Source of the DNA: Candidatus Latescibacterota bacterium
GTDB lineage: Bacteria; Latescibacterota; UBA2968
Assembly (NCBI GenBank): GCA_965207885.1
Contig: OZ242311.1
Location: forward strand, 6,144,001-6,208,000
Reading direction: 5' to 3'
DNA length: 64,000 nucleotides
Position numbers and translations under genes: made by a program. The notes under the pieces were generated by a model that was not told the origin of the DNA, did no database searches, and saw nothing but the letters and a program-made list of their open reading frames with translations. Of the stretch, positions 9,949 through 45,025 are shown piece by piece; position 1 is the first letter of the stretch; the number at the start of each line of letters is the position of its first letter.

Positions 9949-10065
9949 TCGCTGTTTTCTGTTTGTTAAAGATGATTCATTTTACCTAAAACGCATGTTA
10001 ATATTCAAATTGAGACGGGTCAATCGAAAACGACTATTTTTCCAAATTTATTTTTACATTTTTTT

Positions 10066-11399: not shown

Positions 11400-11807
11400 A
11401 TGACAATCCCAGAACGAATCGATGAATTTCTCAAAGGAAAAGCATTCGGCGTTGTCGGCGCATCGCGAGATCGGGCAAAATACGGCAACAAGATCCTGCG
11501 GTGTTATCTACAGAACGGATTGAACGCTTATCCCATCAACCCCAAAGAGGCAGAAATTGAAGGACAACCCTGTTTCCCCGATATAGATTCACTCCCTGAA
11601 CCCGTTCACGGCATCTCAATCATCACACCACCTCCCGTGACAGAAACCATAATCCCTCAAGCTCACGAAGCCGGCATTCAACACGTATGGATGCAACCCG
11701 GCGCCGAGAGCGCAAAGGCGATATCAACGGGAGAAGAACTGGGACTTTCGGTCATCGGCGACGGCTCGTGTCTGCTCGTCGTATTGGGTTATCGAGAAGA
11801 TGGATAA
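11400..11807 (+). CDS. CoA-binding protein (YccU-like)
   Basis: VVGASRDRAKYG, YPINP, VWMQPGAES motifs. Confidence 0.88.
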   Translation: MTIPERIDEFLKGKAFGVVGASRDRAKYGNKILRCYLQNGLNAYPINPKEAEIEGQPCFPDIDSLPEPVHGISIITPPPVTETIIPQAHEAGIQHVWMQPGAESAKAISTGEELGLSVIGDGSCLLVVLGYREDG

Positions 11808-11812
11808 AAAAG

Positions 11813-12952
11813 ATGAAACCTTGCGTACTCTTAATCTCTTGTTTGCTCGCTATTGGGCTTTGTCAAGCCAACGACAGTATTGAAACAGCCAAAGCGCAAA
11901 CCTATGAAGCCATTGACCTGCACCCATTGAGAGACGGGATGAGTCACTGGCGCAAGCGATATGGACGCGACCGCAATGACCCGATGTACAATCCCTCGCA
12001 AATTGTCCATATTGCCGAAAACATGCTCGCTTACCAGAACGCAGATGGTGGCTGGCCCAACAATGTAGATTGGCAGGCGCAGATTGACCCCGACACAGTC
12101 AGAGCGATCAAAGGCGAACGGAGGATGGTCAGCACATTTGACAATCACAACACGTTTTCACAGATCGATTATCTGGCAAAGGTGTACATCGCGACTAACC
12201 TGGCGCGGTATCGAAATGCAGTCGAACGGGGTCTGGACTATATATTCCGCGAGCAACAACCCACAGGTGGATGGCGCGGTTGGGATGTAGATGCCATTAC
12301 TTATAATGACGGCGTAATGATTGGCATAATGACCCTGTTGAAAGATATCGCAGACCGCAAGCCTCAATTTGCATGGACAAGCCATGAACTACACGCCAAA
12401 GCCAAAGCCGCACTGCACCGGGCGATTGCTGTAACCCTGAAATGCCAGATCGTCGTCAAAGGCAAAAAAACGGGATGGAGTCAGCAACACGACCATATAA
12501 CTTATAAACCCGTAAAAGCGCGCACTTATGAACTGCCGTCCATTACAGCGGGACAAACGGCGAAGATCGTGCATTTTTTAATGGCTATTGAAAATCCGCG
12601 CGCCGAAATAATAGATGCAATCGAAACTGCGGTACAATGGTTTCAAGAGGCAAAAATAGAAGGCATTCGACTAAAACGCATCGAAATAGACCCCACGCGC
12701 TTTAGAAATCACACAGCGACCACAGACCTGATCGTCGTCAAAGACCCGGACGCCCCGCCTTTGTGGGCGCGCTTTCACGAAATAGGTACAAACCGCCCCT
12801 TTATGGCCAACCGGGACGGCAACAAAGTCTATTCTCTATCACAGGTCGCCCTGGAAAGACGAACCGGATATGCGTGGTATGGCTACTGGCCCGCGCGAAT
12901 TCTGGAAAAAGATTATCCCATGTGGAAAAACAAAAACAGGAGACAGGAATGA
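11813..12952 (+). CDS. Pectate lyase, polysaccharide lyase family 10
   Basis: Signal peptide from ATG 11813; YQNADGGWP, STFDN, ITYNDG, QQHD, ARTYELPS, WARF, ERRTGYAWY motifs. Confidence 0.9.
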   Translation: MKPCVLLISCLLAIGLCQANDSIETAKAQTYEAIDLHPLRDGMSHWRKRYGRDRNDPMYNPSQIVHIAENMLAYQNADGGWPNNVDWQAQIDPDTVRAIKGERRMVSTFDNHNTFSQIDYLAKVYIATNLARYRNAVERGLDYIFREQQPTGGWRGWDVDAITYNDGVMIGIMTLLKDIADRKPQFAWTSHELHAKAKAALHRAIAVTLKCQIVVKGKKTGWSQQHDHITYKPVKARTYELPSITAGQTAKIVHFLMAIENPRAEIIDAIETAVQWFQEAKIEGIRLKRIEIDPTRFRNHTATTDLIVVKDPDAPPLWARFHEIGTNRPFMANRDGNKVYSLSQVALERRTGYAWYGYWPARILEKDYPMWKNKNRRQE

Positions 12953-14894: not shown

Positions 14895-15743
14895 ATGTCT
14901 AACCCATTATTACCCACGACCAATGCCGACGGCTTGCCCGTCGCGCCCATGAGTGAAGAGCAGAAATACACATTTGACCTCAAGGGATGGATCTGCTTAC
15001 CCGGCTTGCTCAGTGAAGAAGAACTCATCCCCATACGCGAACACCAGATGAAACTTCTGAACGAAAGCGAATCACTGCCCCCTGATGAACGCGACAATCA
15101 CGGCGGCGCATCGCAAATACTACTCGACCACCCGGCTGTGGTCGGTGTATTAAACGAAATCATCTCACATCAGGCACTGGCAACCGAAGACTGCTACGGA
15201 TTTCGGTTTGACCATACGTACACCAGCCATCGACGAGCCGGTCACGACAACTTCCGACCCCATGGCGGAGGTGGGTACTTCAACTTCTGCGGCAACTCAC
15301 ACATCTATCAAATGCAACCCGGGAAAATTCACGCGGGATTGATCCGCGTTGTCTGGGAATTAAATGAAGTGCGAAAAGGCGACGGCACCATGTTCTTATC
15401 GGGCAGTCACAAAGCCGCATTCCCGCGCCCCGAAACCCTGAGTGGACGCGAAAGCGACCTGTGGGACACGTATTCATGCGTTGCGGGATCCGCAGTAATC
15501 TTCACCGAAGCCCTGTGCCATACAGGCACAACATGGGGCAACGAAGAATGGGACCGATTGAGCCTATTCACCTGTTACAACACCGTAAATGCAAAATGGG
15601 GCAAAAAATGCCCACCGCCTGAAGTCATTGCCGCCATGCCCCCAAAGCGACAAACCCTGTTCCGCGGCGTCTGGCACGGCATGCGCGAAATACCGAATGT
15701 GAATAAATACTACGACGAAGCTAATATCGGGCGCTACGTATAA
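14895..15743 (+). CDS. Phytanoyl-CoA dioxygenase (PhyH)-like Fe/2OG oxygenase
   Basis: MSEEQKYTFDLKGW start, GSHK, GSAVIFTEALCH motifs. Confidence 0.7.
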   Translation: MSNPLLPTTNADGLPVAPMSEEQKYTFDLKGWICLPGLLSEEELIPIREHQMKLLNESESLPPDERDNHGGASQILLDHPAVVGVLNEIISHQALATEDCYGFRFDHTYTSHRRAGHDNFRPHGGGGYFNFCGNSHIYQMQPGKIHAGLIRVVWELNEVRKGDGTMFLSGSHKAAFPRPETLSGRESDLWDTYSCVAGSAVIFTEALCHTGTTWGNEEWDRLSLFTCYNTVNAKWGKKCPPPEVIAAMPPKRQTLFRGVWHGMREIPNVNKYYDEANIGRYV

Positions 15744-16419: not shown

Positions 16420-17151
16420 ATGAAAGTTGTAATCTACGGAAGCAATGGCCAATTGGGACCGCATGTGGTCAAAGCACTGGAAGGACATGTAGAACTGCGC
16501 TTAACCGACCTGGAGCCTTATGACACCCCACACGAAATGATGATCGTCGATGTATCGGACCCCGATGCGGTCGCGCGCGCGGCAGAGGGAATGGACGCAA
16601 TCATCAACCTATCCGTCTTGCGCCCCCACCGACAGATCGCCTTTGATGTCAACACCCTGGGATGCTACAACATCATGCGCGCAGCAGTTGAACAGGGGAT
16701 CCCGCGGGTCATCAACACAGGACCCCACTTCACCGTACAAGGCGCACCCTACGAGGCACTGGATTACAACATCGGTCCCGATGTCCCCCCCAAACCCAGC
16801 ACAAACCTATACGCCCTATCCAAGGGCCTGGGCCAAGAAATCTGCCGAATCTTCACCACACAGAGCGACGTCTATGTACTGTGTTACTTATTCTACATCT
16901 TCTGCTATCACGACGACCTGTCAAGACCCGGTCTGAACCGCCCGTTCCTCGTAACCTGGCGAGATGCATCAGCCGCGTTCTTACCGGGCCTGACCATCGA
17001 CCTCAAAACCCTCCCATCGCAATGCGAAGTCTTCAACATCTTTGCAAATCGACCGCACCAGAAATTCTCAAACGAAAAAGCAAAACGCATATTGGGATGG
17101 CAGCCGAAGGATGATCTGTCCCATACTTATACAAAGGAAAACACAAAATGA
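16420..17151 (+). CDS. NAD-dependent epimerase/dehydrogenase (uronate dehydrogenase-like SDR)
   Basis: YGSNGQLG glycine motif, YALSK catalytic YxxxK; RBS gagg before ATG 16420. Confidence 0.8.
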   Translation: MKVVIYGSNGQLGPHVVKALEGHVELRLTDLEPYDTPHEMMIVDVSDPDAVARAAEGMDAIINLSVLRPHRQIAFDVNTLGCYNIMRAAVEQGIPRVINTGPHFTVQGAPYEALDYNIGPDVPPKPSTNLYALSKGLGQEICRIFTTQSDVYVLCYLFYIFCYHDDLSRPGLNRPFLVTWRDASAAFLPGLTIDLKTLPSQCEVFNIFANRPHQKFSNEKAKRILGWQPKDDLSHTYTKENTK

Positions 17152-18377
17152 AAATCCGACCCGACCTCGTTCCTGAGACCGAGCGGAACAACCTCGAAGT
17201 CATCCAGCTCACGGATGAAACGGTCCCCTCATCCCACATCTACATGGAAGCGCAGATCTTCACGCCCGACTCCCAGCGGCTAATCATTCACCGGTCTGCA
17301 CATCCCCATGGCTCTGACCCAAAGGATCCCGAGCACCAGTTCCTCATCTGCGACCTCGAAGACCATTGCAGCTTAACGCCCATCACCACCGAACTCGGAA
17401 CCACGGGACCATCCATCTCGCCCGATGGCGAATGGCTATACTACTTCGTCAACGAAACAGAACCCGGAGGCGGACGCCTGACGCTCAAACGCGTCAAGAT
17501 GGACGGAACAGAACGCGACACCATCTATGTCCTGGACCACGCCATACCCGACACCGACTTCAGATTGAGCCGACCGTATCCCCTCTCGACCATCTCATCC
17601 GACGGCAAGCGCATCGCAATCTCGGGATTCCTCGGCGACGGCAAAACCGCAGGCGCACCCTGGGGTCTCCTCGTCTTTGAAATTGAAAAGCCATCTGTAC
17701 GCCTGATCTTTCACGGACCCTCCTGGTGCAATATCCACCCACAATACACGCGCCAAACAGACCCTGAAGCCTCCCACGACATCATGATCCAGGAAAACCA
17801 CGGCAACACCGCATCGCCCGACGGCAGCGTAGAAACGCTCGTCAGTGGACAGGGCGCAGACATCCACCTGATCCGGGACGACGGATCCGCACTGCGCGAC
17901 TTCCCCTGGGGACGGGACGGAAACGAATTCTGCCAGGGGCATCAATGCTGGCAGGGACAAAGCGACATCGCCATCACCAGCACGAGCACACGCGAACCCG
18001 CTGAAAGACAACTCATCTCCGGACGCGCCGCGCCTCACATCGGCGACGAAGGCATCAACACCCCGGGTGGTTGGCGAAACGACCTCTCCCGATCCTTCGA
18101 CACGCCCGACTTCTGCCACTTCGCAACAGACATCGACGGAACGCGGTTAATCACAGACGCAGGTCCAATAGACGCGGGCGGATCAGTCTGGCTATTCGAC
18201 CTCCCCGAAGAAGAGGAAGGCGCCCTCGCAAACGCGCGGAAAGTCGCGGACCCCGGATCGTCCTGGCAAAAAAACACACACATCCACCCCTTCCTCTCCC
18301 CGGATGGACAGTCGGGCTTCTTCAACTCCGATGAAAGCGGCATATTACAGGCGTATATGGTACGCGGTTGGTCTTAA
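17148..18377 (+). CDS. Oligogalacturonate lyase-like beta-propeller (PL22-like; called ogl below)
   Basis: SHIYMEAQIFTPD; HIHPFLSPDG...FNSDESG C-terminal motif; TolB-like repeats. Confidence 0.7.
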   Translation: MKIRPDLVPETERNNLEVIQLTDETVPSSHIYMEAQIFTPDSQRLIIHRSAHPHGSDPKDPEHQFLICDLEDHCSLTPITTELGTTGPSISPDGEWLYYFVNETEPGGGRLTLKRVKMDGTERDTIYVLDHAIPDTDFRLSRPYPLSTISSDGKRIAISGFLGDGKTAGAPWGLLVFEIEKPSVRLIFHGPSWCNIHPQYTRQTDPEASHDIMIQENHGNTASPDGSVETLVSGQGADIHLIRDDGSALRDFPWGRDGNEFCQGHQCWQGQSDIAITSTSTREPAERQLISGRAAPHIGDEGINTPGGWRNDLSRSFDTPDFCHFATDIDGTRLITDAGPIDAGGSVWLFDLPEEEEGALANARKVADPGSSWQKNTHIHPFLSPDGQSGFFNSDESGILQAYMVRGWS

Positions 18378-18401
18378 GCAAAACTAAAAGGAGATACCAA
18401 A

Positions 18402-20333
18402 TTGATTCCCCGACAAGTGCTGTTTGGCAACCCAGAAAAATCCATGGCCCGAATCAGTCCCGACGGCGAGTACCTGAGCTACCTCGCGCCAGTGGCGGGC
18501 GTTTTGAACGTCTGGATCGCCGCAATAGAAGATCCCGACTCAGCCAGGCCGATCACCAAAGACAAGGAACGCGGCATCCGCTACTACGACTGGACCTATG
18601 ATGGGCAGCACATTCTGTACTACCAGGATGCCAAAGGCGACGAAGACTGGCACGTGTACGCGACGAATATCACCACAGGCGAGACCCGAGACCTGACGCC
18701 CTTTGAAAAAGTCAACGCGCAGATTCTCTCAGTCAATGAAAAGACGCCCAACGAAATCCTGATCGGCATCAACAACCGCAATCCGCAGTTGCACGACGTC
18801 TATCGAATCGCGCTTTCCACCGGCGAGCGGACCTTGATCGAAGAGAATCCGGGCTTTGTCTCTTACCTGTTCGACAACGACGACCGCACGCGTTTTGCCA
18901 TGACATTTTCGCCGACCGGGGGACAGGAGATCCTCCAACGGGACGAGAACAACCAGTGGCAACCCTTCATAGAGATTCCCAACACCGACGCCCTGACGAC
19001 CTATCTGACCGGCTTCGACAAATCAAACCAGATCCTCTATATGATCGACAGCCGCAAGCGAAACACGGCCGCCTTATTCACCCTCGACCTGGCGTCCAGC
19101 AAACGAGAACTGGTAGCCGAGAACGATCGCGCGGATGTGGGCGGGATGTTGGTTCATCCAACAGAGAAACACGTACAAGCCGTATCGTTCATTTACGACC
19201 GCAACCGCTGGCATGTGCTGGACCCAGCGATTCAAGAGGACATGGATTACTTGCACTCGGTGGAAGACGGCGAATTGTCCATCACCAGCCGCACGCTCGA
19301 CGACCGCTTGTGGACAGCGGCCTACGTCCTGGACAACGGGCCGGTCAAATACTACCTGTACGACCGCACCAGAAAGCAGGCGAATTACCTGTTCAGCAAC
19401 CGCACGGACCTGGACGAGTACCAACTGGCCAGGATGCATTCGCTGACCATCAAATCCCGCGACGGGTGGAATCTGATCAGCTATCTGACGCTCCCCCCCA
19501 ACAGCGCCCCCGACGGCGACGCTCGGCCGAGCAATCCTGTACCGCTGGTTTTACTGGTGCACGGGGGTCCCTGGGGACGCGACATCTGGGGCTACAATTC
19601 GGAGCATCAATGGCTGGCGAACCGCGGTTACGCCGTACTGAGCGTCAACTTCCGCGGCTCGACCGGCTTCGGCAAAGAGTTCACCAACGCCGGCAATGGC
19701 GAGTGGGCTGGCAAAATGCACGACGACCTGATTGACGCTGTCAACTGGGCAGTCCGTGAAAAGATCACGCAGCGCGACCAGGTGGCGATAATGGGCGGCA
19801 GCTACGGCGGATACGCGACCCTGGTCGGATTGACCTTCACCCCCGAGACATTCGTCTGCGGCGTCGATATTGTCGGCCCGAGCAACCTCGTCACGTTGCT
19901 ACAAAACGTGCCGCCTTATTGGGTCCCGATCCTCCCAATGATGAAAGACCGCGTAGGTGACTGGACGACACAGGAGGGCCAGAAATCCTTGCTCGCCAAA
20001 TCGCCGCTTGCGCGCGTAGATCAGATCCAGCGGTCTCTGCTGATCGGCCAGGGAGCCAACGACCCGCGCGTCAAACAAGTCGAATCCGATCAAATCGTAG
20101 AGGCGATGAAACAAAAAAACATCCCCGTGACCTACGTGCTTTATCCAGACGAAGGGCACGGATTCGCACGACCGGAAAACCGCTTATCGTTTTACGCCGT
20201 CGCTGAGGCGTTCTTATCCGAGCACCTGGGCGGACAGTTTGAACCGGTCGGAAAGGACTTTCAAGGAGCGAAAATTCAGGTGACAGAAGGAGCGGACCAG
20301 GTCCCCGGGCTCCAGACGGCCCTGGGTCAATGA
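18402..20333 (+). CDS. S9 family prolyl oligopeptidase/acylaminoacyl peptidase
   Basis: VHGGPW, GGSYGGY nucleophile elbow, GANDPRV, DEGHGF. Confidence 0.93.
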   Translation: MIPRQVLFGNPEKSMARISPDGEYLSYLAPVAGVLNVWIAAIEDPDSARPITKDKERGIRYYDWTYDGQHILYYQDAKGDEDWHVYATNITTGETRDLTPFEKVNAQILSVNEKTPNEILIGINNRNPQLHDVYRIALSTGERTLIEENPGFVSYLFDNDDRTRFAMTFSPTGGQEILQRDENNQWQPFIEIPNTDALTTYLTGFDKSNQILYMIDSRKRNTAALFTLDLASSKRELVAENDRADVGGMLVHPTEKHVQAVSFIYDRNRWHVLDPAIQEDMDYLHSVEDGELSITSRTLDDRLWTAAYVLDNGPVKYYLYDRTRKQANYLFSNRTDLDEYQLARMHSLTIKSRDGWNLISYLTLPPNSAPDGDARPSNPVPLVLLVHGGPWGRDIWGYNSEHQWLANRGYAVLSVNFRGSTGFGKEFTNAGNGEWAGKMHDDLIDAVNWAVREKITQRDQVAIMGGSYGGYATLVGLTFTPETFVCGVDIVGPSNLVTLLQNVPPYWVPILPMMKDRVGDWTTQEGQKSLLAKSPLARVDQIQRSLLIGQGANDPRVKQVESDQIVEAMKQKNIPVTYVLYPDEGHGFARPENRLSFYAVAEAFLSEHLGGQFEPVGKDFQGAKIQVTEGADQVPGLQTALGQ

Positions 20334-20340
20334 GAACCAC

Positions 20341-21309
20341 ATGACAATCTCCCTCGACCCCATCCGCGACGATTTGATCGCCTGGGCGGAATCCCTCTAC
20401 CTCCCGGACACTGGAGCCTTCCGCAACGGCGACATACCTGCGCCCAGCCTTCCGAGTACCCTCTTCATCACCTATATCCTGTACAGCATGGACGCGCTCG
20501 ACGCAGTCGCGCTTGACCGCGCAAAATGGATCGCCTGGATCCAGTCACAACAGAGCGAACAGGACGGATCCTTTGCCTTCCCACCCTCAAACAGGCGGGG
20601 AATCGCATTTTGGAACGCAGTTCGCGCACTCAATATGCTGGGTGCTCAGGTCCTGAAATTCCCCGACGACCAGCGCGGCGCAACAACCGTCACCGGACTC
20701 CACCAGTGGTTCAAAACGTGGAAAACATCCGGCGACACCCATCACGAAGTCCTCGCGCGCGTACCCATGCTCGTCAGCCATCCAGACCCCGCCTGGGTCA
20801 ACACATTCTTCGACGAACTCGCCGCACAACAGCACCCCACGCTCGGAACATGGCCCGCTGAAGGACCCACCAACATCAGCCGCACCTTCGCCTACAGCCT
20901 GATCTACACCGGAATGGACAAACTCCCACCGCAAGCTGAGAAAATCATAGATGCCATGCTAAATCTCCAGGAAGAGAACGGCTTCTGGCACGGACGCCCC
21001 AACTTTTCAACCATGGACGCGGTCTATCTCCTATCGCGACTGCCAAAAGCCACCAGGTGGTGGCGCGAGACAGAAGCAAACGCCGCGCTACACCGCACAG
21101 CAGATGCGCTCATCCCCTATTACAAAGCACACGCAGAACGCGACAAGCAGGACACCCATCAATTCGCGGCCACCGTACAAACATTTGCCCTGCTATACGA
21201 AGCATTGTCCCAGCGATTTGCAACATCGCACCCGTGGCAATTCGGATGGAGCAACAGGGCATTCTGGCAGTGCCGCGTAATCAAAGAGAAACTAACCGTC
21301 CATTATTAA
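20341..21309 (+). CDS. Prenyltransferase/squalene-oxidase-repeat-like alpha-toroid protein
   Basis: QW-like repeats WIQSQQSEQDGSF, QQHPTLGTW, LQEENGFW. Confidence 0.5.
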   Translation: MTISLDPIRDDLIAWAESLYLPDTGAFRNGDIPAPSLPSTLFITYILYSMDALDAVALDRAKWIAWIQSQQSEQDGSFAFPPSNRRGIAFWNAVRALNMLGAQVLKFPDDQRGATTVTGLHQWFKTWKTSGDTHHEVLARVPMLVSHPDPAWVNTFFDELAAQQHPTLGTWPAEGPTNISRTFAYSLIYTGMDKLPPQAEKIIDAMLNLQEENGFWHGRPNFSTMDAVYLLSRLPKATRWWRETEANAALHRTADALIPYYKAHAERDKQDTHQFAATVQTFALLYEALSQRFATSHPWQFGWSNRAFWQCRVIKEKLTVHY

Positions 21310-21527
21310 CACACGAAAACGGGTCAAGTCCAAGATACGAACACTGGATGAGGCCCAGTTCCCAACGGCATTCGGCTTGGCGATGGAAGCAGAGGAATAC
21401 ACACAGGTAAGGGAGAAGCAGGTCAAAGAGGCACTATCGGACATGGAGCATCTGGGGCTGGACGATCGATCTACTGATGAACCTGATGACCCCAGCATGG
21501 ACATTATAGATCAAGAACAGAACGCAG

Positions 21528-21584
21528 ACAGGACCTGGTCTGGGGATCGAACTCGACGAAAGCGGTCGTCAATAAACATCGTGC
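21528..21584 (+). pseudogene. Remnant copy of the 3' end of the dehydratase gene (48567-48629), cut by the TnpB element
   Basis: 30/33 identity over acaggacctgg...ctcgacgaa; continues as ATAAGGT at 22867 beyond the element. Confidence 0.85.
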
Positions 21585-21750
21585 GTGACTACTCCCAACG
21601 CTAAAGCAGTTGGGCTTCTTGGCGGTCAATCCGCCTGACGTTGTAGCCCCAACGTCAATATGTTTATCGCAGCATTGTGGTCTCTGTCCGTCTTATAGCC
21701 ACACGCCTTGCAATGATGCACACGCTCAGAAAGTGCTTTCTTCTCTCTAT
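21585..21750 (-). ncRNA. Predicted TnpB omega/reRNA scaffold (upstream boundary approximate)
   Basis: TnpB guide RNAs are known to derive from the right end overlapping the tnpB 3' end; right-end hairpin is visible; extent is inferred. Confidence 0.5.
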
Positions 21751-22750
21751 GTCCGCATGCAGAGCAATCTTGTGACGTATATTCAGGATCAACGGCCTTG
21801 AATCCAATACCAGCCTCTTCCGCTTTGTATTTGAGACAGTGCCGAAACAGGGACCATGCTACGTCTGCTATTGATTTAGCCAATCGTCTGTTCTTTTGCA
21901 TCTCTTTCACGTCCAATTTCTCTACGGCTATGAATCCGTGACGATTGACCATTTTTCTTGATTCTTGATGAGCAAAGTTATGTCGTTTATTACGGATACG
22001 CTCATGCACTCTACCAATGACTTTACGACGCTTTTCTCTTACAGCGTCGGTCTTGGGTCTTTTTTTCACCGCGTCCCATTTGCGCTGTGTTTTGGCAAGA
22101 GATTTCTCTTCTTTCCTAAAGAATCTCTGATTCTCTATTTTCTGTCCGTCACTGGTCACAGCAAAGGAATTGAGACCCACGTCAATGCCAACAGCAGAGC
22201 CAGCGGTTGGTTTCTTCTCTTTTTCGCCAATATCGCAAGAGATAGACACAAACCACTTGCCTGTTGCTGTGCGTGTGATTGTGCAAGACTTAGGGATACC
22301 CTCAAGTGACCTGTGCTGGACAATGCGAATGCAACCAATACTGCCCAATCGCAAGCCCTTGTCGTCCAATCGACATCCATTGGCAAACTGAGGATAGGTG
22401 ATAGAATCATAGCGATGCTCATTCTTGTATCTGGGAAAGCCAGCTTTCTCGCCTGTCTCTGACTTCTCTTTGAGACGCCGAAAGAATCCTTTGAATGCCA
22501 AATCTACTCTTGCTGACACTTGTTGCAACACTTGACTATATACTTGCTTGAAAGCGGCGTGTTGTTGTTTTAACAATGGTATTGTTTTGGTCTGGTCATA
22601 TTGCGAGAGAGACTTATTCTCATTTTTCCATGCTTGTATTCTGGCACAGAGTAGTTGATTATAGAGAATACGACATTCGTCAATATGCGCCAGCAAGATT
22701 TGTTCTTGCTTTTTGGTCGGACGCAATCTGTATTTGAATGATTTAACCAT
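21626..22750 (-). CDS. tnpB: RNA-guided endonuclease TnpB
   Basis: FKYRLRPT HTH; RuvC triad GIDVG / AVEKL / DRDHNAA intact; CSAC...CKAC zinc finger. Confidence 0.95.
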   Translation of the reverse strand: MVKSFKYRLRPTKKQEQILLAHIDECRILYNQLLCARIQAWKNENKSLSQYDQTKTIPLLKQQHAAFKQVYSQVLQQVSARVDLAFKGFFRRLKEKSETGEKAGFPRYKNEHRYDSITYPQFANGCRLDDKGLRLGSIGCIRIVQHRSLEGIPKSCTITRTATGKWFVSISCDIGEKEKKPTAGSAVGIDVGLNSFAVTSDGQKIENQRFFRKEEKSLAKTQRKWDAVKKRPKTDAVREKRRKVIGRVHERIRNKRHNFAHQESRKMVNRHGFIAVEKLDVKEMQKNRRLAKSIADVAWSLFRHCLKYKAEEAGIGFKAVDPEYTSQDCSACGHREKKALSERVHHCKACGYKTDRDHNAAINILTLGLQRQAD

Positions 22751-22872
22751 AATAAAAATATATACTTATATGCATTTTTTGTCAAGATTTTTATCGCTAA
22801 AGCAATACCAAAATCACAAGCCCTCATATCCCAACGCTAAAGCTGTTGGGTTTTACGGGCTGTTTGATAAGG

Positions 22873-22901
22873 TTGCGTAAAATTGCAACATTTGCTATAA
22901 T
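22873..22901 (+). promoter_or_regulatory. Sigma70-type promoter of the TA module
   Basis: TTGCGT-17 nt-TATAAT with extended -10 TG. Confidence 0.55.
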
Positions 22902-22937
22902 TTATTGCTTCCATGACATCATTAAAGGATTTTAGCC

Positions 22938-23192
22938 ATGAGTAAAATGATAAAAACAAAAGTAACAGCGCAAGGGGTTTTGATCCCTCGGCAGTTGTTA
23001 GAAGGAATAGAGGAAGTAGAAATAAAAAAAGAAAATGATGTGATTACAATTATGCCGACGGGACAGATGAACGCCTGCGGTAGTAGTACACAGCTTGATC
23101 CCATTTGGAATCTGGGTGAAAATCCAGTCGAATGTGGTATTTCAGATGCTTCCGAACAGCATGACAAATATTTGTATGACACATCTTCATGA
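22938..23192 (+). CDS. Putative antitoxin (AbrB-like N-terminus)
   Basis: TKVTAQGVLIP; C-terminal DASEQHDKYLY; ATGA overlap with PIN gene. Confidence 0.7.
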   Translation: MSKMIKTKVTAQGVLIPRQLLEGIEEVEIKKENDVITIMPTGQMNACGSSTQLDPIWNLGENPVECGISDASEQHDKYLYDTSS

Positions 23193-23602
23193 ACACAAAT
23201 ATATTCTTTCTTGATACAGGTTATCTCATTGCCCTTGAAGCTTCTAACGACAAAAATCATACACGCGCAAAAAATCATTGGCGAACTTTTATTCGCACAC
23301 GCCCGTCATTAGTGACCACTTCCTTTGTGTTTGATGAAGTGGTCACTTTTTTTAACAGTCGAAATCGGCATGATAAAGCAATTGAAGTTGGCACACGCCT
23401 CTTGAATAGCCCTTCTGTTCAGCTAATCCAAGTAGATGACTCTCTTTTTCGCAAAGGTTGGGAATATTTCGAGCAACATTCAGATAAGCTCTACTCTTTG
23501 ACAGATTGCATTTCATTTGTTGTTATGCAGCAACGGAAAATTCAGACTGCCCTAACTTTTGATAGGCATTTTACTCAAGCCAATTTTTTGACCATTCCCT
23601 GA
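23189..23602 (+). CDS. vapC: VapC/PIN-domain toxin
   Basis: FLDTG, SLTDCISF, TFDRHF PIN motifs. Confidence 0.9.
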   Translation: MNTNIFFLDTGYLIALEASNDKNHTRAKNHWRTFIRTRPSLVTTSFVFDEVVTFFNSRNRHDKAIEVGTRLLNSPSVQLIQVDDSLFRKGWEYFEQHSDKLYSLTDCISFVVMQQRKIQTALTFDRHFTQANFLTIP

Positions 23603-23608
23603 ATCTCC

Positions 23609-23664
23609 TGAAAGTGGCATACTACAGGCGTATATGGTGCGTGGTTGGCTTTGAGTAGGACTAA
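23609..23664 (+). repeat. Diverged direct copy of the ogl 3' end (18332-18387)
   Basis: 46/56 identity; reads ESGILQAYMVRGWL* versus ESGILQAYMVRGWS*. Confidence 0.9.
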
Positions 23665-23695
23665 GCGGCCATCGCACAAACATCTCTGCCTTGTA

Positions 23696-23713
23696 ATATA
23701 ACATATGTTATAT
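23696..23713. promoter_or_regulatory. Perfect 18-bp palindrome, candidate operator upstream of the helicase
   Basis: ATATAACAT-ATGTTATAT, followed by TTGATA-17-TATATT promoter-like sequence. Confidence 0.5.
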
Positions 23714-23795
23714 GATTCTTGATATTCACCCGACCATATTATATATTCCGGTTGTCCAAAAATTGAGACATGACAGGTAGAAGGATATATCACCC

Positions 23796-26700
23796 ATGAT
23801 TTTAACTGACCTACCAGGCGATTACGCCCGAAGAATCAAAAACATCCGGGGCGTCAAAGAACTGACCCAAACGCAGTTCGCGGAGTGCATTGGTGTGTCC
23901 TATGCCTCAGTCAACCGCTGGGAGAACGGACAGTCGCGTCCCAACAATCTGGCCTGGCAACGCATCTTAGAGCTGGAAGCGTACCCCCATGATGGCATTG
24001 ATGAGGTACCGGCGATACCAGAAGTGAGATCAACATCTCCACTGAGCATGGACTTCTCCGCGAACCCGGACGCTATTTCAGCAGTCGCCGAAGCGCATCG
24101 CCTCACCTACGGACATCTTTTTAACTCTGCGTTTGCCGCTGAAACATCGTTGATCGACCCGCTACCTCATCAGCGCATCGCCGTGTACGAGCAAATGCTG
24201 CAACAGGCCCCCCTGCGATTCTTGCTCGCCGACGACGCGGGCGCCGGTAAAACGATCATGACGGGCCTGTACGTGCGCGAGATGTTGTCCCGCAGACTCA
24301 TCCGCCGCGTGCTCATCGTCCCACCTGCTGGCCTGGTTGGCAACTGGGAGCGAGAATTGCGCACCCTGTTTCACCTGCCATTCCGCATCATCAGCGGCGC
24401 AGACGCGCGAACCGGCAATCCCTTCCTTGGAGCAGAGAGTGACCGGGCAATCGTCAGCATCGACACTCTGGCCGGGGAACGCATGTTCAACTACCTCAAA
24501 GACCCGCAGACTGACGCTTATGACCTCGTCGTCTTCGACGAAGCGCACAAGCTATCCGCGAATCGCCAGCCGGACTTCAGGGTACGCAAAACGGATCGCT
24601 ACAGGCTGGCAGAAGCCCTATCTGGCGCTGAGGTAGATAGTGAAGACTGGAGACTCCCCTGGTCGGCTCAACATCTGCTATTGCTCACCGCAACGCCGCA
24701 TATGGGAAAGGATCACCCCTACTACTATCTATGGCGTCTGCTACTTCCCGACGCACTCTCTACCTATGATGCTTTCGAAGAGTTTCCCCAAGAATCTCGG
24801 CAGAAGCACTATATCCGCCGGACCAAAGAAGAGATGGTCCACTTTGATGGTTCCCCGCTATATCCACAGCGAAACTGCGACACATTGGGCTACGCACTCT
24901 CACAAGGACAAGAAAGCGAACAGGAACTCTACGACGAAACCACAGAATACATCCGGTATTATTACAACCGCGCTGGCATTTTGAACCGCTCCGCCGCCCG
25001 CCTGGCAATGAGCGTCTTCCAGCGCCGTCTCGCCAGTTCCACGTACGCCCTCCTGCGCTCCTTTGAGCGTCGCCATGAGAAACTCGAAGGACTGATTGAC
25101 GACATACAGAACGGGCGTCTCTCCGAGGAACAACTCTTACGCCAACAACGACGCCTCGACACTCTCGACGATCTCTATGAAACCCGCACTGCCGATGAGG
25201 ATGGAGAACAACAGGAGGGATTCGAGAGCGATGCTCTGGGCGGCACCATCGCGGTCAATCTCAGCGAACTGGAGACAGAACGTCTCAGGGTCGAAGAACT
25301 GTTCAACAAGGCCCAGAACCTGTACGACACTGGCGAGGAATCCAAATTCGAGAAACTGCGCGAGGTGCTCAGTAATCCGAAATACACCGACGAAAAATTC
25401 ATCATATTCACCGAGCACCGCGACACAGCGGAGTTCCTTGTGCGCCGTCTCGAAGGTCTCGGCTACACCGGTCAAGTCGCCCTGATCCACGGTGGCCTGC
25501 CGTACCAGGAAAGAGAGCGACAGGTCGAGTTTTTCCGCCGACCAGCGACGGAAGGCGGGGCCAACTATCTGGTAGCTACCGACGCCGCTGGCGAAGGTAT
25601 CAATCTGCAGTTCTGCTGGCTGATGGTCAACTACGACATCCCCTGGAATCCGGCGCGGCTCGAACAGCGGATGGGTCGTATCCATCGCTACGGACAAACG
25701 CACGATCCCGTAGTCATAATCAACTTGGTGTCCAGCGGCACGCGCGAGGGGCGGGTCTTGAAAACCCTTCTCGACAAGCTGGAGGCGATCCGACGACAAC
25801 TCCAATCTGACAAGGTCTTCGACGTCGTAGGCCGTCTGTTTGAAGAATACTCCATGAAGGACTATCTCGAACAAGCGATCACCGAAGACGCCGATACCCT
25901 TGCCGAACAACTGGAAGGCGATCTCACTGAAGAGCAAGTCCGTGCTCTCGAACAAAAGGAGCGCATGATCTATGGGGAAGGTGGCGAAGTGCGTAGCCGA
26001 TTACCCCATCTCAAAAAGGAAGCAGAGCAGGAAAACTACCGCCGGCTGCTGCCCGGATACGTGCGACGCCTCGTGGAAAAAGCCGCACCGCTACTCGACC
26101 TGCACATTGAAGGGGACCCCGAAGAAACCTTCACCCTGGTACCTGCTCGACCTCGTGCAGCTGATCCCCTGCTATCCGCACTTGAGTTGTATCCCGAAAG
26201 CGCGTGGAATCGACTGACAGTGTACAAGCCATTCACTCGCGAAAACGCGATCTGGCTACACCCCGGCGAGCCGGTATTCGACAGCATCTCTGCAACGATC
26301 CTGAATCGATTCAAACACGAGGGACTAAAAGGAGCCATATTCATCGATCCTTACGCAACCGAGCCGTATCTGTTCCACATCGCACTCATTTCCGTCGAAC
26401 AACACAGCCAGGTCAACACACAGGAGACCAATCTGCTATCTGCCCTCAATAATGACGAAACAGCCCCGAAACTGCTCGAATCGCGACTGGTCGGACTGCG
26501 CCAACTAAGCGATGGTACCGTAGAGGAGTGTGCGGTCGAGCATCTTCTTCTCCTCAGAGGTGCCCATGGCATTGCCCCGAGCCGGGTGCCACTTGCCACT
26601 TTTGCTCGCACCATGGCTCAGGATGCCGCCAATTTTATCCGCGATGAAGTGACCCAACGACTCGCACAAACACATCGACAGCGCATCCTCAACGATCTAC

Positions 26701-27392
26701 CCTCACGCATGGACTTTGTCAACCGCGGCTTCGACTTCCAGGCAGCCGAACTCGCAGCAGCCCGATCCCATCTCACCCAAAGGGCACGCACTGGTGATAG
26801 GCATGCCAATACAGAACTCACCAGAGTCAAAGAACAACAACGAAGCCTGACGGATCTCCGCAACCGTCGCCTCGCCGAACTACAAACCGAACCGGACCTC
26901 ATCCAGGCTGGTGAAATGGAATTCCTCGTCCATGCCCTCGTGGTACCCGTCCAGGATACCGGGGAAACCGAGCGTTACGATGCCGATGTCGAAGCCATTG
27001 CCGTAAAAGTCGCCACCGCCTACGAGGAAAGTTTTGGCGCTGAGGTCCAGGATGTCTCACGCCCCGAACTCGCACGGCGCGCGGGACTAACCGACTGGCC
27101 GGGCTTTGACCTCAGATCCCGCCATCCCGCAAATGACCAAAGCAACGCAGAAGAACGCGCCATCGAAGTCAAAGGCCGCGCTGGCTCCGGTAATATTCAA
27201 ATGAGCGAAAACGAATGGGCCAGAGCCTGCAACCTGCGCGATGATTACTGGCTCTATGTCGTCTTCGACTGCGCCACGCCACGCCCACGCCTCGTGAGAG
27301 TGCGCGACCCATTTGGCAAACTACTCGTCAGAACCCACGAATCTATTGCATTCACTATCACCTCAGGGGAACTGTTGGAAGCCGCCGAGTAA
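23796..27392 (+). CDS. XRE-HTH + SNF2-family helicase + DUF3883 (NOV-C-like) nuclease
   Basis: LTQTQFAECIGVSYASVNRWENG; ADDAGAGKT; DEAH; TATPH; QRMGRIHRYGQ; PGFDL...IEVKG...SENEW. Confidence 0.92.
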   Translation: MILTDLPGDYARRIKNIRGVKELTQTQFAECIGVSYASVNRWENGQSRPNNLAWQRILELEAYPHDGIDEVPAIPEVRSTSPLSMDFSANPDAISAVAEAHRLTYGHLFNSAFAAETSLIDPLPHQRIAVYEQMLQQAPLRFLLADDAGAGKTIMTGLYVREMLSRRLIRRVLIVPPAGLVGNWERELRTLFHLPFRIISGADARTGNPFLGAESDRAIVSIDTLAGERMFNYLKDPQTDAYDLVVFDEAHKLSANRQPDFRVRKTDRYRLAEALSGAEVDSEDWRLPWSAQHLLLLTATPHMGKDHPYYYLWRLLLPDALSTYDAFEEFPQESRQKHYIRRTKEEMVHFDGSPLYPQRNCDTLGYALSQGQESEQELYDETTEYIRYYYNRAGILNRSAARLAMSVFQRRLASSTYALLRSFERRHEKLEGLIDDIQNGRLSEEQLLRQQRRLDTLDDLYETRTADEDGEQQEGFESDALGGTIAVNLSELETERLRVEELFNKAQNLYDTGEESKFEKLREVLSNPKYTDEKFIIFTEHRDTAEFLVRRLEGLGYTGQVALIHGGLPYQERERQVEFFRRPATEGGANYLVATDAAGEGINLQFCWLMVNYDIPWNPARLEQRMGRIHRYGQTHDPVVIINLVSSGTREGRVLKTLLDKLEAIRRQLQSDKVFDVVGRLFEEYSMKDYLEQAITEDADTLAEQLEGDLTEEQVRALEQKERMIYGEGGEVRSRLPHLKKEAEQENYRRLLPGYVRRLVEKAAPLLDLHIEGDPEETFTLVPARPRAADPLLSALELYPESAWNRLTVYKPFTRENAIWLHPGEPVFDSISATILNRFKHEGLKGAIFIDPYATEPYLFHIALISVEQHSQVNTQETNLLSALNNDETAPKLLESRLVGLRQLSDGTVEECAVEHLLLLRGAHGIAPSRVPLATFARTMAQDAANFIRDEVTQRLAQTHRQRILNDLPSRMDFVNRGFDFQAAELAAARSHLTQRARTGDRHANTELTRVKEQQRSLTDLRNRRLAELQTEPDLIQAGEMEFLVHALVVPVQDTGETERYDADVEAIAVKVATAYEESFGAEVQDVSRPELARRAGLTDWPGFDLRSRHPANDQSNAEERAIEVKGRAGSGNIQMSENEWARACNLRDDYWLYVVFDCATPRPRLVRVRDPFGKLLVRTHESIAFTITSGELLEAAE

Positions 27393-27410
27393 CTCAGAAA
27401 GAAAAACGGC

Positions 27411-27710
27411 ATGAAATTACGACAGCCGCGCCATAGCAAAGAGGAATTCGCCCGACGTGGTCAGGCGATCTACGAACAACAAGTGAGGGCGCAAGTGGAA
27501 GAAGACAACTACGGCAGGATCGTAGCGATTGATATTGAAACAGGCGAATTCGAGGTAGCGGACGACCCACTTGCCGCCGCTGACCAACTTTTTGCGCGTT
27601 GTCCAGATGCACAGCCGTGGTTGATCCGCATCGGCCATCGTGCGCTATATCGGTTCGGGCAGCACAATCATGGGGTGGTGCCCAAGCCCGAACAGAGAGC
27701 CATTCTGTAG
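27411..27710 (+). CDS. Small conserved protein (DUF5678-like)
   Basis: EEFARRGQAIYE, GRIVAIDIETGEFE, RIG motifs. Confidence 0.65.
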   Translation: MKLRQPRHSKEEFARRGQAIYEQQVRAQVEEDNYGRIVAIDIETGEFEVADDPLAAADQLFARCPDAQPWLIRIGHRALYRFGQHNHGVVPKPEQRAIL

Positions 27711-29381: not shown

Positions 29382-29488
29382 TGCACAGCCGTGGTTAGTG
29401 TGCATCGGGCACCGTGCGCTACATCGGTTCGGGCAGCACAATCATGGCGTGGTGCCTAACCCCAAACAGAGGCCCTTTCCGTAGAGGA
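29382..29488 (+). repeat. Diverged direct copy of the 3' end of 27411..27710 (27608-27714)
   Basis: 91/107 identity, ungapped, includes the TAG stop. Confidence 0.92.
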
Positions 29489-32499: not shown

Positions 32500-32591
32500 A
32501 CAACAAACGCTTACGCCTTTCCGCTCAAGCAGGTCTCGCTGGACTTCGTTTACAGGAAGAATGTGCGGCATGAGCACATCCCGACTCTACA
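32496..32591 (+). pseudogene. Decayed copy of the 5' end of the DUF1156 gene (34587-34690)
   Basis: Shares cgcctttccgctcaagcaggtctcgctggact exactly; 8-nt deletion; ATG changed to ATA. Confidence 0.9.
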
Positions 32592-34586: not shown

Positions 34587-37500
34587 ATGAACGACAAACG
34601 CTTAATCGAAGTCGCCTTTCCGCTCAAGCAGGTCTCGCTGGACTCTGTCCACGAGAAGAATGTGCGACATGGACATATTTCCACGCTGCATATATGGCCG
34701 GCGAGGCGCCCACTGGCCGCGTCCCGAGCTGCGCTGATTGCGACGCTGCTTCCCGATCCCGGCAATCCCGAGAAACGGAAGGAGATTCTGGAGCGCATGG
34801 CTGGCAGGGTGATTGAGAAAATCGAACGCAAGCGCGTAGGTGGGCGTACGGTCGAAAAAATCAAAGAGGAAACAATCGGTGGCATCCTGCACTGGAAGAG
34901 GGAAAATGACCCGGATATCCAGTGGTTCCGCGACGAAATCCGCAAAGCTTACGATGGACGAGCGCCCAAAGTGCTAGACCCATTCGCTGGCGGCGGTGCC
35001 ATTCCCCTCGAAGCCATGCGCCTGGGCTGCGACGTGACCGCTATGGACATCAACCCGGTTGCATGGTTCATCCTCAAATGTACCCTCGATTACCCCCAAA
35101 AGCTCTCCGGTCAAACCCGCCCATTGCCCGAGTTCGCGCTGAAAGACCGCGAATTTATGGAGACATTCCTGAAAGCAAAAGGGTTTAAGGGAGCCAGCTT
35201 ACGGACATTCCTCGAACGACTCGGCCATGGCGACGGCGGCGAAATCCAACTCGACTTCGTACAGCATGACGATCCGATACTCGAAGCGGACCTCGCCTGG
35301 CATGTGCGTGCCTGGGGGCGTTGGGTACTGGCAAGAGCACGCAAAGAATTATCTTCGTATTATCCTACCTACGCCGATTTCGAGCCATTAGAGTCAGATG
35401 AAGAATTTTTGTTGCGCCCCAGCAGACGGTTGCTGGAGGTTGACGAAGAAGGCGTGCCGCAAGTCGATCCGCTCAACGCCGAGTTTGACGACGCCTATCT
35501 CGAGGACAAGAAAAATCTGCGCTGGATCGCCAAACCAACAGTGGCCTATCTCTGGGCGCGGACCGTAACCTGCAAACAGTGCCGAGCCACGCTGCCGCTG
35601 CTCAAGACACAATGGCTGTGCAAAAAATCTCGAAAGCGCGTGCTGCTAAATATGGAACCGAATGCAGACCAAACGGGCATTGTCTTCGATGTGCAGAATG
35701 ACGTACCTCAAAACGGCGGCAACGCGGCACAGCGACGAGAACACGACAAGCGCATCGGGGCTGGAACCATGTCTCGTACCGGCGCAACCTGTCCATGCTG
35801 CGGCACGATCATGACCATGGAAGATATCCGCCTTGAAGGTCGTGCTGGACGTTTGGATGCGACCATGACGGCTGTGGTGGTGGATGGAGGAAGGAAAAAG
35901 GGTAAGGAATACCGTTTGCCGACCGACCATGAACTTGCGATAGCGGAAGTGAGCGAGGAACAGCTTCAGGCCCTGTATGCAGGTATCCCGTTTGGGTTAC
36001 CAGAGGAACCAATCATTGAGGACGCGAAACGAAATACATGGTGTGTTCAATATGGAAAAACTACCTGGCGGAAGCTGTTCACGAATCGGCAGCTATTAGC
36101 TCTTGGCGAGTTTGTTCTGAGTCTTCGGAGAATGATGCAAGAACTCGAAGGCCAGCCAGAGAGTTGGCAAAAAGCTCTGATTGCAAATCTTGCGCTTGTG
36201 AATGATCGACTATCTGATTATTCCAGCGCGGTCTGCTCCTGGCACAACGGAAGGGAAAAACTTGGACATACGTTTGCGCGGTTTGCACTTCCGATGGTGT
36301 GGGATTATACTGAAGTCAATCCGTTATCAGATTCATCCGGCAATTACCACGGCGCACTTGAATGGGTCTCACGTTGCGTTGACCACTTACTTGAATCAGC
36401 GCAATCGGCAGAAATAACAAATATACAAGCCTCCAGTGCTACTAAGACATCGGGGGAGTACGACGTCATTCTTACAGATCCTCCTTACTATGATGCAATC
36501 GGCTATTCCGTTCTCATGGACTTTTTTTATGTCTGGCTTCGGCGATCATCACATGGATTGTCCGCTGAGGTCGAGTCGGTCTTCTCCGATACCCTTAGCC
36601 CCAAATGGGATCATGACACAGAGGACGGCGAACTCATAGATGATGCCAGCAGATTTGGTGGCGACAAAGCGCGATCCAAGCAGAACTATGAAGACGGAAT
36701 GGCCCGTGCGTTCCGCTCTTGTCACGCTGCATTGCAACCAGACGGGCGGCTCGTGGTTGTGTTCGCCAACAAGCAACCCGATGCCTGGGAAACATTGGTA
36801 GCCGCGCTGATTCGGGCTGGCTTTGTCGTTGATGGGTCCTGGCCTATTCAGACCGAGATGGGTACCAGGACTCGTGCGATGGCATCTGCTGCCTTGTCAT
36901 CCTCCGTCTGGATCGTCTGCAAAAAACGCCCCCCTGCTCGCCCCGGTTGGGATAACACTGTACTCAATGAAATGCGCAAAAATATCACACAGCAACTCCG
37001 CGACTTCTGGGACGCGGGCATCCGAGGACCGGACTTTGTGTGGGCCGCGACCGGGCCAGCACTCGAAGCCTTTAGCAAGCATCCCGTGGTCAAGAAGGCG
37101 AACGATCCGAACCAATTCATGACCGTCTCGGAATTTCTCCGCGAGGTGCGGCGCATGGTCGTAGATTTTGTCGTTGGTCGCGTCCTGACGCAGGATGACA
37201 AAGAAGCTATCACTGGACTCGACGATGTGACCACCTATTACTTGCTCCATCGCCACGACTTCGGCATGGAAGACGCGCCTGTAGGCGGCTGCATCCTCTA
37301 CGCACTATCTTGCAACCTCTCCGACTCAGCCCTGGTCAATCAGTACGACCTTCTGGCTCAATCGGGCAAGGGGGGATCGAGCGACGAGACAGAGGAATCG
37401 GAAACCACGGGCGGCGCAAAGGTCAAACTCAAAACCTGGAGCCGACGCCAAGGCCGCAACCTCGGCCTCCACGCACCGAGCGGACGGCCCGTGCCATTAA

Positions 37501-37751
37501 TTGACCAGGTACACAAACTAATGCACCTCTGGCGCGCCGGAGATCAGGTCAAAGTTGACGATTACCTCGACACAGGCGGCCTCCAGCGCAACGCCCTGTT
37601 CAATCAGATACTCCAGGCACTCATCGAACTGGCCGACGCCGGTTCCGATGAGCGGTCAATTCTCGAAGCTCTGTGTAATCACGTAGCTGCCCGCGACAAT
37701 ATCCAGAAACCGGGGCAGAGACAGCTTCAATTCGGAGGAGCCGAGGGCTGA
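34587..37751 (+). CDS. DUF1156 adenine-specific DNA methyltransferase with Zn ribbon
   Basis: LHIWPARRPLAASRA, LDPFAGGG, TDPPYYD, CxxC pairs. Confidence 0.92.
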   Translation: MNDKRLIEVAFPLKQVSLDSVHEKNVRHGHISTLHIWPARRPLAASRAALIATLLPDPGNPEKRKEILERMAGRVIEKIERKRVGGRTVEKIKEETIGGILHWKRENDPDIQWFRDEIRKAYDGRAPKVLDPFAGGGAIPLEAMRLGCDVTAMDINPVAWFILKCTLDYPQKLSGQTRPLPEFALKDREFMETFLKAKGFKGASLRTFLERLGHGDGGEIQLDFVQHDDPILEADLAWHVRAWGRWVLARARKELSSYYPTYADFEPLESDEEFLLRPSRRLLEVDEEGVPQVDPLNAEFDDAYLEDKKNLRWIAKPTVAYLWARTVTCKQCRATLPLLKTQWLCKKSRKRVLLNMEPNADQTGIVFDVQNDVPQNGGNAAQRREHDKRIGAGTMSRTGATCPCCGTIMTMEDIRLEGRAGRLDATMTAVVVDGGRKKGKEYRLPTDHELAIAEVSEEQLQALYAGIPFGLPEEPIIEDAKRNTWCVQYGKTTWRKLFTNRQLLALGEFVLSLRRMMQELEGQPESWQKALIANLALVNDRLSDYSSAVCSWHNGREKLGHTFARFALPMVWDYTEVNPLSDSSGNYHGALEWVSRCVDHLLESAQSAEITNIQASSATKTSGEYDVILTDPPYYDAIGYSVLMDFFYVWLRRSSHGLSAEVESVFSDTLSPKWDHDTEDGELIDDASRFGGDKARSKQNYEDGMARAFRSCHAALQPDGRLVVVFANKQPDAWETLVAALIRAGFVVDGSWPIQTEMGTRTRAMASAALSSSVWIVCKKRPPARPGWDNTVLNEMRKNITQQLRDFWDAGIRGPDFVWAATGPALEAFSKHPVVKKANDPNQFMTVSEFLREVRRMVVDFVVGRVLTQDDKEAITGLDDVTTYYLLHRHDFGMEDAPVGGCILYALSCNLSDSALVNQYDLLAQSGKGGSSDETEESETTGGAKVKLKTWSRRQGRNLGLHAPSGRPVPLIDQVHKLMHLWRAGDQVKVDDYLDTGGLQRNALFNQILQALIELADAGSDERSILEALCNHVAARDNIQKPGQRQLQFGGAEG

Positions 37752-44990: not shown

Positions 44991-45025
44991 AAGGAAATTT
45001 AGACACAAAATCGAAAGGACTGAGA

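Follow-up and report, generated by a model that had tools for sequence, protein, structure and literature searches.

The defence island that separates two genes of a conserved operon in this Candidatus Latescibacterota genome contains a series of short gene-end stubs, which are probably scars of recombination between diverged alleles, anchored by homology at one end of the incoming DNA and joined illegitimately at the other. One arrangement is shared by seven pairs in the window (the whole 64-kb stretch of DNA analyzed) and by a prenyl pair in the close relative L007: the cargo lies between an intact gene end and a truncated homologue of that end. Sequence comparisons indicate that the stubs are ends of alleles that once worked in other lineages and have since decayed, in proportions that vary from stub to stub.

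The window was compared with 12 close relatives (L001-L012), Candidatus Latescibacterota MAGs found by comparing the ogl protein with genome contigs (80 loci), with 94-98% amino acid identity to ogl and several of them complete chromosomes. The operon common to these relatives, Ldh2-g14895-epi1-epi2-ogl-pepS9-prenyl-dehydratase, is a conserved sugar-acid operon of uncultured Latescibacterota. In L001, L005, L008, and L012 the prenyl stop is followed, after ~26 nt, by the dehydratase ATG. Relative to this empty site, the 26-kb island of the window (~21315-47480) is therefore an insertion. The same prenyl|dehydratase slot is filled in six of the 11 relatives with data (L004, L006, L007, L009, L010, and L011), the epi2|ogl slot in four (L002, L009, L011, and L012), the ogl|pepS9 slot in L003 and L012, and the gap 3' of the dehydratase gene in several. 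The intergenic gaps of this operon are hotspots for defence and toxin-antitoxin cargo. The pepS9 gene directly follows ogl in 10 of the 12 relatives; it is missing from L006, and the L003 contig ends in a TnpB gene after ogl. L006 (11228-11373) represents an operon deletion variant, where ogl is followed by the first pepS9 bases and then by prenyl. Where the epi2|ogl slot is filled, in L002 (~6240-6275 and 9960-10000), L009, L011, and L012, the ogl leader differs (..TAAGGAGAACAAAA ATG). L002 also has a 13-nt remnant of the ogl start, with ATG changed to ATA, right after epi2, a 5' displacement below the size reached by the repeat search.

In the window, the core genes pepS9 (18402-20333, plus strand) and prenyl, a prenyltransferase-like gene with a 'type-1' 3' tail (20341-21309, plus), both assigned with Pfam, lie between ogl and the island. 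The island begins with a segment that we named Y, a dehydratase 3' stub, a TnpB-only IS, VapBC, and an ogl 3' stub with a fragment of a prenyl 3' stub. HmaA, ORF99, a gene of up to 586 aa, an ORF99 stub, DUF2806 and OLD-like genes, and an HmaB 5' stub come next, followed by AriAB, HmaB, a pentapeptide-repeat gene, an HmaB 3' stub, HTH, PDC-M07A, and HmaC. A dehydratase 5' stub, PIN_3, AAA_22, and an HmaA 3' stub then precede the intact dehydratase gene. Segment Y, the 212 nt (21316-21527) between the prenyl stop (+CACAC) and the dehydratase 3' stub, is common only to L007 (97.6%), and the ORF running through it has no Pfam match. The VapB-like/VapC toxin-antitoxin cargo (22938-23602, plus; Pfam PIN) has a promoter-like element upstream (GGTTGCGTAAAATTGC...TATAAT..., 22869-22937), beside the dehydratase stub. 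The same element stands right after the intact dehydratase gene in L002 (~15313-15390), L005 (~15307-15380), L011 (~19762-19840), and L012 (15373-15453), where it precedes a different cargo gene in each.

The 56-nt ogl stub (23609-23664, plus; family D5 of the window repeat search) pairs at 82% identity with 18332-18387, a source-type end made up of the final 15 codons and stop codon of a 409-aa PD40 beta-propeller gene (17148-18377, plus) together with 10 nt downstream. We keep for this ORF the name ogl given in the earlier note, which is unconfirmed, as Pfam gives PD40 alone and NCBIfam nothing. The stub is non-coding, has no start codon, begins 7 nt past the VapC/PIN stop, and occurs also in L007 at 16456-16511. 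Within the window its 33-nt core recovers, besides itself, only the gene end (3 mismatches), and 100 dinucleotide shuffles yielded no match. Compared in frame, the two copies show exactly the differences that the earlier note had listed: AGC/AGT, TTA/CTA, GTA/GTG, and CGC/CGT, all silent, one S/L change (TCT/CTT), and TAA/TGA. Over 48 nt the stub has eight mismatches to the local gene, five to L003, and six each to L004 and L012 (12 orthologues compared). AGT occurs in two of these 12 intact orthologues, CTA in four, and GTG in 11, and the intact ogl of L003 carries all three together, like the stub. GTA is a private state of the window's intact ogl, found otherwise only in L002. CGT is absent from the L007 copy of the stub, which has CGC, and so arose after the stub had formed. 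None of the 80 ogl loci has an intact gene ending in GWL* (+TGA), and TGA stops among them are confined to a more distant clade. The stub lies 5.2 kb from ogl, beyond pepS9 and prenyl, which the relatives with data keep in place; with two core genes between it and its gene, it does not represent a duplication of a local target. The repeat pair encloses genes present in 10 (pepS9) and 11 (prenyl) of the 12 relatives, the L003 contig stopping before both.

The dehydratase gene (47502-48626, plus), the right-hand core flank of the island, is intact and has orthologues in nine of the 12 relatives; it belongs to the MR/MLE family (galactonate-dehydratase-like) according to Pfam and to NCBIfam matches below the equivalog cut-offs. 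Its 3' stub (21528-21575, plus; repeat D13), identical in L007, follows the gene end for 33 nt (21528-21560 vs. 48567-48599) with only TTA/CTG and ATT/ATC differing, both silent as previously described, and continues with a shorter in-frame tail ending in TAA. The stub has three mismatches to the local gene and one to L011 (nine orthologues compared), both silent codon differences (3 nt) being majority orthologue states. The stub ending ESGRQ* was found in no intact dehydratase among the 120 best of 4960 protein matches, nor in the nine loci. Both this ending and GWL* of the ogl stub reflect either decay or unsampled alleles. The 5' stub (44955-44990, plus; repeat D12) comprises a 21-nt leader and ~5 codons, and past ~44989 cargo shared with L002 matches better. 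Comparison of 44955-44999 with 47481-47525 recovered the silent changes ATC/ATT, ACC/ACT, and GAC/GAT already reported and added three leader changes (21 nt) and the edge codons GTG/AAG and ACT/ATT. We rejected a reading of the edge codons (AAG GAA ATT) as substitutions because the L002-shared cargo matches them better; they stayed in the pooled counts nonetheless, which makes these counts conservative. The overlap GGAAA at the joint of stub and cargo looks like junction microhomology. GAT is found in all nine dehydratase orthologues, so that the local GAC is derived, and ATT and ACT are private to the stub. The anticipated closeness of the copies to orthologues of relatives thus holds for the ogl stub, nearest to L003, and for the dehydratase 3' stub, nearest to L011, but hardly for the dehydratase 5' stub, which has nine mismatches to the local gene and eight to L012, the nearest foreign allele.

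The TnpB-only element (21576-22867, minus strand; Pfam OrfB_IS605, Cas12f1-like_TNB, and HTH; ends accurate to ~4 nt) is inserted at the stop of the dehydratase 3' stub, and the L012 sequence past the dehydratase stop resumes at window position 22868. It has the features of the IS200/IS605 type, with the same subterminal hairpin near both ends, is flanked by ATAA on both sides, and lacks TnpA. No TnpB guide (omega) RNA or other Rfam family was matched in 21300-23800 at E<=0.1. At its right end, the side from which a guide would be taken, the flank corresponds to the stub allele and not to any intact dehydratase end. Related TnpB genes lie after ogl in L003 (11317-12294, 74% amino acid identity) and downstream of the dehydratase gene in L006 (17363-18484, 94%). 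TnpB-guided homing seems an unlikely origin of the dehydratase stub: the IS is located exactly at that stop, but homing explains no other stub. Transposon target-site duplications are repeats of 2-14 bp, identical at formation and abutting the element ends. The stub repeats, 26-170 nt long, 74-88% identical, and away from IS ends, do not fit this description, the TnpB element being the only IS inside the block.

L007 provides the clearest case of allelic origin. In the window, the ogl stub is fused directly to the start of a prenyl 3'-region stub (23665-23693, plus), which is cut off by the Hma block; its match, 19 nt at 89% to 21166-21184, is weak alone. At the same junction, L007 carries 120 nt at 96.7% identity to the prenyl 3' region, followed by a type-2 tail. 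The intact prenyl gene of L007 shares its type-1 tail with the window and with L001, where the site is empty; on the remnant that follows the cargo, the tail is of type 2, the form that intact prenyl genes have in L002, L005, L008, and L012. The two tails are distinct alleles, and each of them is found intact in other genomes. Over its first ~105 nt, the duplicated segment differs at only three sites, and the intact L007 gene is like its own remnant to about -65 nt from the stop and then identical to the window (two genomes only). L007 holds Y, the dehydratase stub, the IS, VapBC, and the ogl stub without the Hma part. Identity between the window and L007 is 97.5-100% over most of the length of the cargo block and ~93.5% in the core genes.

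The other stubs derive from the Hma genes and ORF99. HmaA (helicase, 23796-27392, plus), HmaB (DUF1156 methylase, intact, 34587-37751, plus), and HmaC (DUF499 ATPase, 41607-44921, plus) are all strong PADLOC matches (1.8e-172, 2.3e-122, and 7.1e-74, respectively), with NCBIfam scores below the equivalog cut-offs. In the excerpt of the PADLOC paper (PMC8565338), Hma (helicase-methylase-ATPase) is a candidate defence system described as a three-gene operon. The same three genes are present here but are split by other defence-type genes, each bordered by Hma stubs: the HmaA/HmaB gap of ~7 kb contains ORF99, the gene of up to 586 aa, DUF2806, the OLD-like gene, and AriAB (PARIS-like), and the HmaB/HmaC gap of ~4 kb contains the pentapeptide-repeat protein, HTH, and the PDC-M07A pair. 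The last 26 nt of HmaA and 10 nt downstream (27367-27402) form the source-type copy of repeat D14, whose remnant (47442-47477, plus; 86%) lies between the AAA_22 gene and the dehydratase gene, a junction found in L006 at 99%; its Leu-to-Met difference is the state of the intact HmaA of L009. The HmaB 5' stub (32514-32591, plus; D3, 81% to 34613-34690) lies upstream of the inserted AriAB gene. All of its six amino acid changes affect residues that are invariant in 115/115 homologues (114/115 for the last). The HmaB 3' stub (39452-39506, plus; D7, 88%), located after the inserted pentapeptide-repeat gene and compared over 37685-37736 and 39452-39503, ends in ..QFG followed by TAG. This ..QFG* terminus matches six of eight comparable intact HmaB C-termini (among 120 homologues), and the intact HmaB of the window is four residues longer. 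ORF99 (99 aa, 27411-27710, plus), with homologues in L002 and L011, has its 3' 102 nt (27609-27710) repeated at 29383-29484, within a stub (29382-29488, plus; D2, 85% over 107 nt, compared codon by codon) that follows the inserted gene of up to 586 aa. This ORF, which belongs to no Pfam family, recurs across slots: after HmaA in the window, after the dehydratase gene in L002 (~15400-15640), and twice in L011 (16357-16619 and 19826-20088; 91.7% over 264 nt).

The check set beforehand for the earlier note, which had seen divergence mainly at synonymous sites, was a third-position bias over all pairs. We pooled the seven gene-end/copy pairs (124 codons) and counted differences according to Nei-Gojobori, with stop-to-stop changes taken as silent and boundary codons included, a conservative choice; the stubs are short, which leaves little power in per-stub tests. 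The 68 base differences fall 20/14/34 on the three codon positions, and the 34 of 68 at third positions bear out the bias. Sd and Nd are both 34, on 85.7 synonymous and 286.3 non-synonymous sites (pN/pS 0.30). When differences were placed at random with the observed ts/tv, none of 5000 runs reached the observed Sd (third positions, P=0.001). Preserving the exact substitution spectrum gave P=0.0002, and P=0.0034 for the three pairs of the earlier note only (22 differences). The synonymous and third-position enrichment is genuine, and random decay is rejected (P<=0.001).

The differences in the three core pairs sort into two kinds. For nine of 20, the stub state is present in an intact orthologue, and seven of the eight coding ones are silent. 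The 11 stub-private differences show no codon bias, with three of eight coding ones at third positions. In some cases it is the local intact gene that has changed and not the stub (GTA in ogl, GAC in dehydratase), and the closeness of stubs to foreign alleles stems partly from such private changes (GTA, GAC, TTA/ATT). It could also stem from overwriting of the local gene by later homologous recombination. The displaced end is intact in other lineages for the L007 prenyl stub, the ogl haplotype (L003), and the HmaB 3' terminus, and not for the dehydratase 5' stub. The claim that the copies are ends of orthologous alleles and not neutrally decayed duplications therefore stands as far as foreign-allele states and ends and the location of the stubs are concerned, but not in its exclusion of decay, as the stubs have also decayed neutrally.

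From these scars we infer the following recombination steps. Related lineages would supply the cargo on DNA of which one side pairs with a conserved gene by homology, the other end being joined illegitimately. Homology-facilitated illegitimate recombination and a Campbell-type crossover of a circularized fragment are candidate routes. An outcome of the duplication type would need the joint to be on the anchor's side of the crossover, through two sister chromosomes or a circular intermediate. If the illegitimate joint fell inside the resident gene end, the incoming DNA would supply the working end, and what remains of the resident end, a stub of 13-170 nt, would lie beyond the cargo. Stubs might then be moved to other slots by later exchanges; the position of the ogl stub after VapBC, fused to a prenyl stub, would be explained by such exchanges carrying stubs along. 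Displacement of diverged alleles predicts two kinds of differences between stub and gene, allelic ones under purifying selection, mostly silent, and others due to later neutral decay. Possible microhomology is found at two joints, GGAAA between the dehydratase 5' stub and cargo and ATCAAAA between the HmaA stub and the dehydratase leader, and none at a well-defined third one, where ogl+10 meets prenyl -170. In self-comparisons, three of the 12 relatives have duplicated stretches of at least 28 nt (the gene-end stubs of L007, the 264-nt ORF99 copy in L011, and a 76-nt pair in L002), indicating that scar formation is the exception.

An unlikely alternative, which would likewise produce the stub order seen, is the tandem addition of a second diverged operon copy (a heteroallelic merodiploid arising, for example, by transformation bridging sister chromosomes), followed by loss of the redundant genes. 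Transformation-induced merodiploidy is on record, as described in the excerpt of PMC3784515. In both the window and L007, the stubs run in the order expected of two consecutive operon copies, [ogl-pepS9-prenyl]-Y-dehydratase 3' stub-VapBC-[ogl 3' stub | prenyl 3' stub-dehydratase], and in L002, L005, L011, and L012 cargo directly follows the dehydratase gene with the promoter-like element of VapB. However, at least three events with neat boundaries would be needed, and the stubs internal to the Hma genes are left unexplained. Moreover, the window and L007 are no more similar across ogl-pepS9-prenyl than across the upstream genes, and so give no sign of a recently co-transferred operon copy.

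We give somewhat less credit to an in-situ duplication of the target gene end at insertion, with neutral decay of the copy while the gene stayed under selection. When this process was simulated (gene omega 0.1, copy decaying freely), the mean Sd was 27.6, not far from the observed 34 (P=0.039), so that the codon statistic alone rejects duplication with one-sided decay only weakly. The lack of bias among stub-private changes, the loss of six invariant residues in the HmaB 5' stub, and the near identity of the first ~105 nt of the L007 prenyl segment are all in line with it. Against it, the ogl stub is not beside ogl but after pepS9, prenyl, the IS, and VapBC, fused to the prenyl stub; the minor states AGT and CTA co-occur in the intact ogl of L003; the L007 prenyl tails are distinct alleles, each intact elsewhere; and the terminus of the HmaB 3' stub is one that occurs naturally as an alternative. 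Location and allele types contradict in-situ duplication for the ogl and prenyl stubs.

Beyond displacement between diverged alleles, one may speculate, with little confidence, that cargo in this lineage moves by regular recombinase-free cassette exchange at gene boundaries, allelic stubs serving as portable arms. If true, this exchange would let defence genes enter every operon junction and the Hma-internal junctions with the genes unbroken.

Site-specific integration into gene ends by a tyrosine or serine recombinase, with an attP bearing the replacement end, is improbable. It would account for gene-end direct repeats flanking cargo with the intact copy kept functional, and the ogl pair includes an exact 16-nt stretch that is a possible core. 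Yet no tyrosine/serine recombinase (integrase) Pfam domain was found in the 49 ORFs scanned across the window, the only mobility genes among them being a DDE transposase (10121-11245) and TnpB. The stubs come from at least six genes and from both 5' and 3' ends, with no common motif seen by eye in the alignments; duplicated stretches of at least 28 nt are restricted to three of the 12 relatives, though most carry insertions; and the ogl repeat pair encloses core genes. Prophages and islands integrate in gene 3' ends with an element-borne replacement end, as in tRNA genes or for e14 in icd. The likeness to e14 lies in the gene remaining intact and the displaced end beyond the insert differing mostly at silent sites, but the window showed neither an integrase nor a common core, the ogl stub lies away from its gene, and the source genes are many.

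Least probable is that stubs are kept as portable homology arms ('homology tags') aiming cargo at gene boundaries: they do travel with cargo (the block common to the window and L007, the AAA_22-HmaA stub-dehydratase junction in L006) and their 26-170 nt are near the minimum length for RecA pairing, but they decay, with invariant residues lost and unbiased private changes, duplicated stretches of at least 28 nt are found in only three of the 12 relatives, most of which have insertions, and use of the ogl stub as an arm within this chromosome would delete pepS9 and prenyl.

Displacement of gene ends in Rhs, CDI, and T6SS arrays was reportedly treated by Jackson et al. in 2009, and homology-facilitated illegitimate recombination in transformable bacteria is said to have been documented by de Vries & Wackernagel in 2002, Prudhomme et al. 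in 2002, and Meier & Wackernagel in 2003. The excerpt of PMC3240628 also deals with homology-facilitated illegitimate recombination in transformable bacteria. This process resembles the one proposed here in having one homologous anchor, one illegitimate joint often guided by microhomology, and no dedicated recombinase; the difference is that our case is known from scars alone, and the process is deduced from them. The displacement mechanism itself has been proposed for Rhs C-termini and Vibrio cholerae T6SS effector-immunity arrays (Kirchberger et al. 2017, PMC5361080). According to the excerpt of that study, the conserved gene part anchors the module, homology-facilitated illegitimate recombination is proposed to join the far end, and the previous gene end is moved behind the incoming module, where it persists as an orphan fragment; clean replacement by homologous recombination is the commoner event. 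The orphan fragment left by the displaced end is shared with the Latescibacterota island, and a conserved anchor would be. In contrast to these arrays, the displaced ends here come from catabolic enzymes and Hma genes rather than polymorphic toxins, displacement affects 5' as well as 3' ends, the stubs are 13-170 nt long without a selected immunity gene, and the cargo consists of defence and toxin-antitoxin genes. This kind of scar is already known; what is new is to find it where cargo fills a catabolic operon and an Hma system of an uncultured phylum. In a literature search, titles and the openings of abstracts contained no description of such stubs in defence islands.

Recombination between diverged alleles would account for the assembly, without an integrase, of a defence island in an uncultured phylum: repeated exchange would have kept the flanking catabolic and Hma genes intact while leaving datable stubs. 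Sorting stub differences into those shared with intact alleles and private ones separates divergence before displacement from later decay, and silent-site bias alone should not count as proof of foreign origin.

Other features of the window lie away from the island. The DDE_Tnp_1 transposase gene (10121-11245) immediately precedes the pectate-lyase gene (11687-12952), the first gene of the sugar-acid cluster. A 119-nt repeat at 74% (284-402 vs. 2280-2398) lies inside two adjacent minus-strand ORFs, the second of which (509-2488) is a DUF6785/DUF6784 gene; it is not a gene-end stub and may reflect paralogy. Finally, a ~58-nt non-coding direct repeat (58693-58750 vs. 59511-59568; 80% over 51 nt reported) flanks a cassette of a Gp49/HigB-like toxin and an HTH antitoxin (58796-59410), with the same layout of cargo between diverged repeats.
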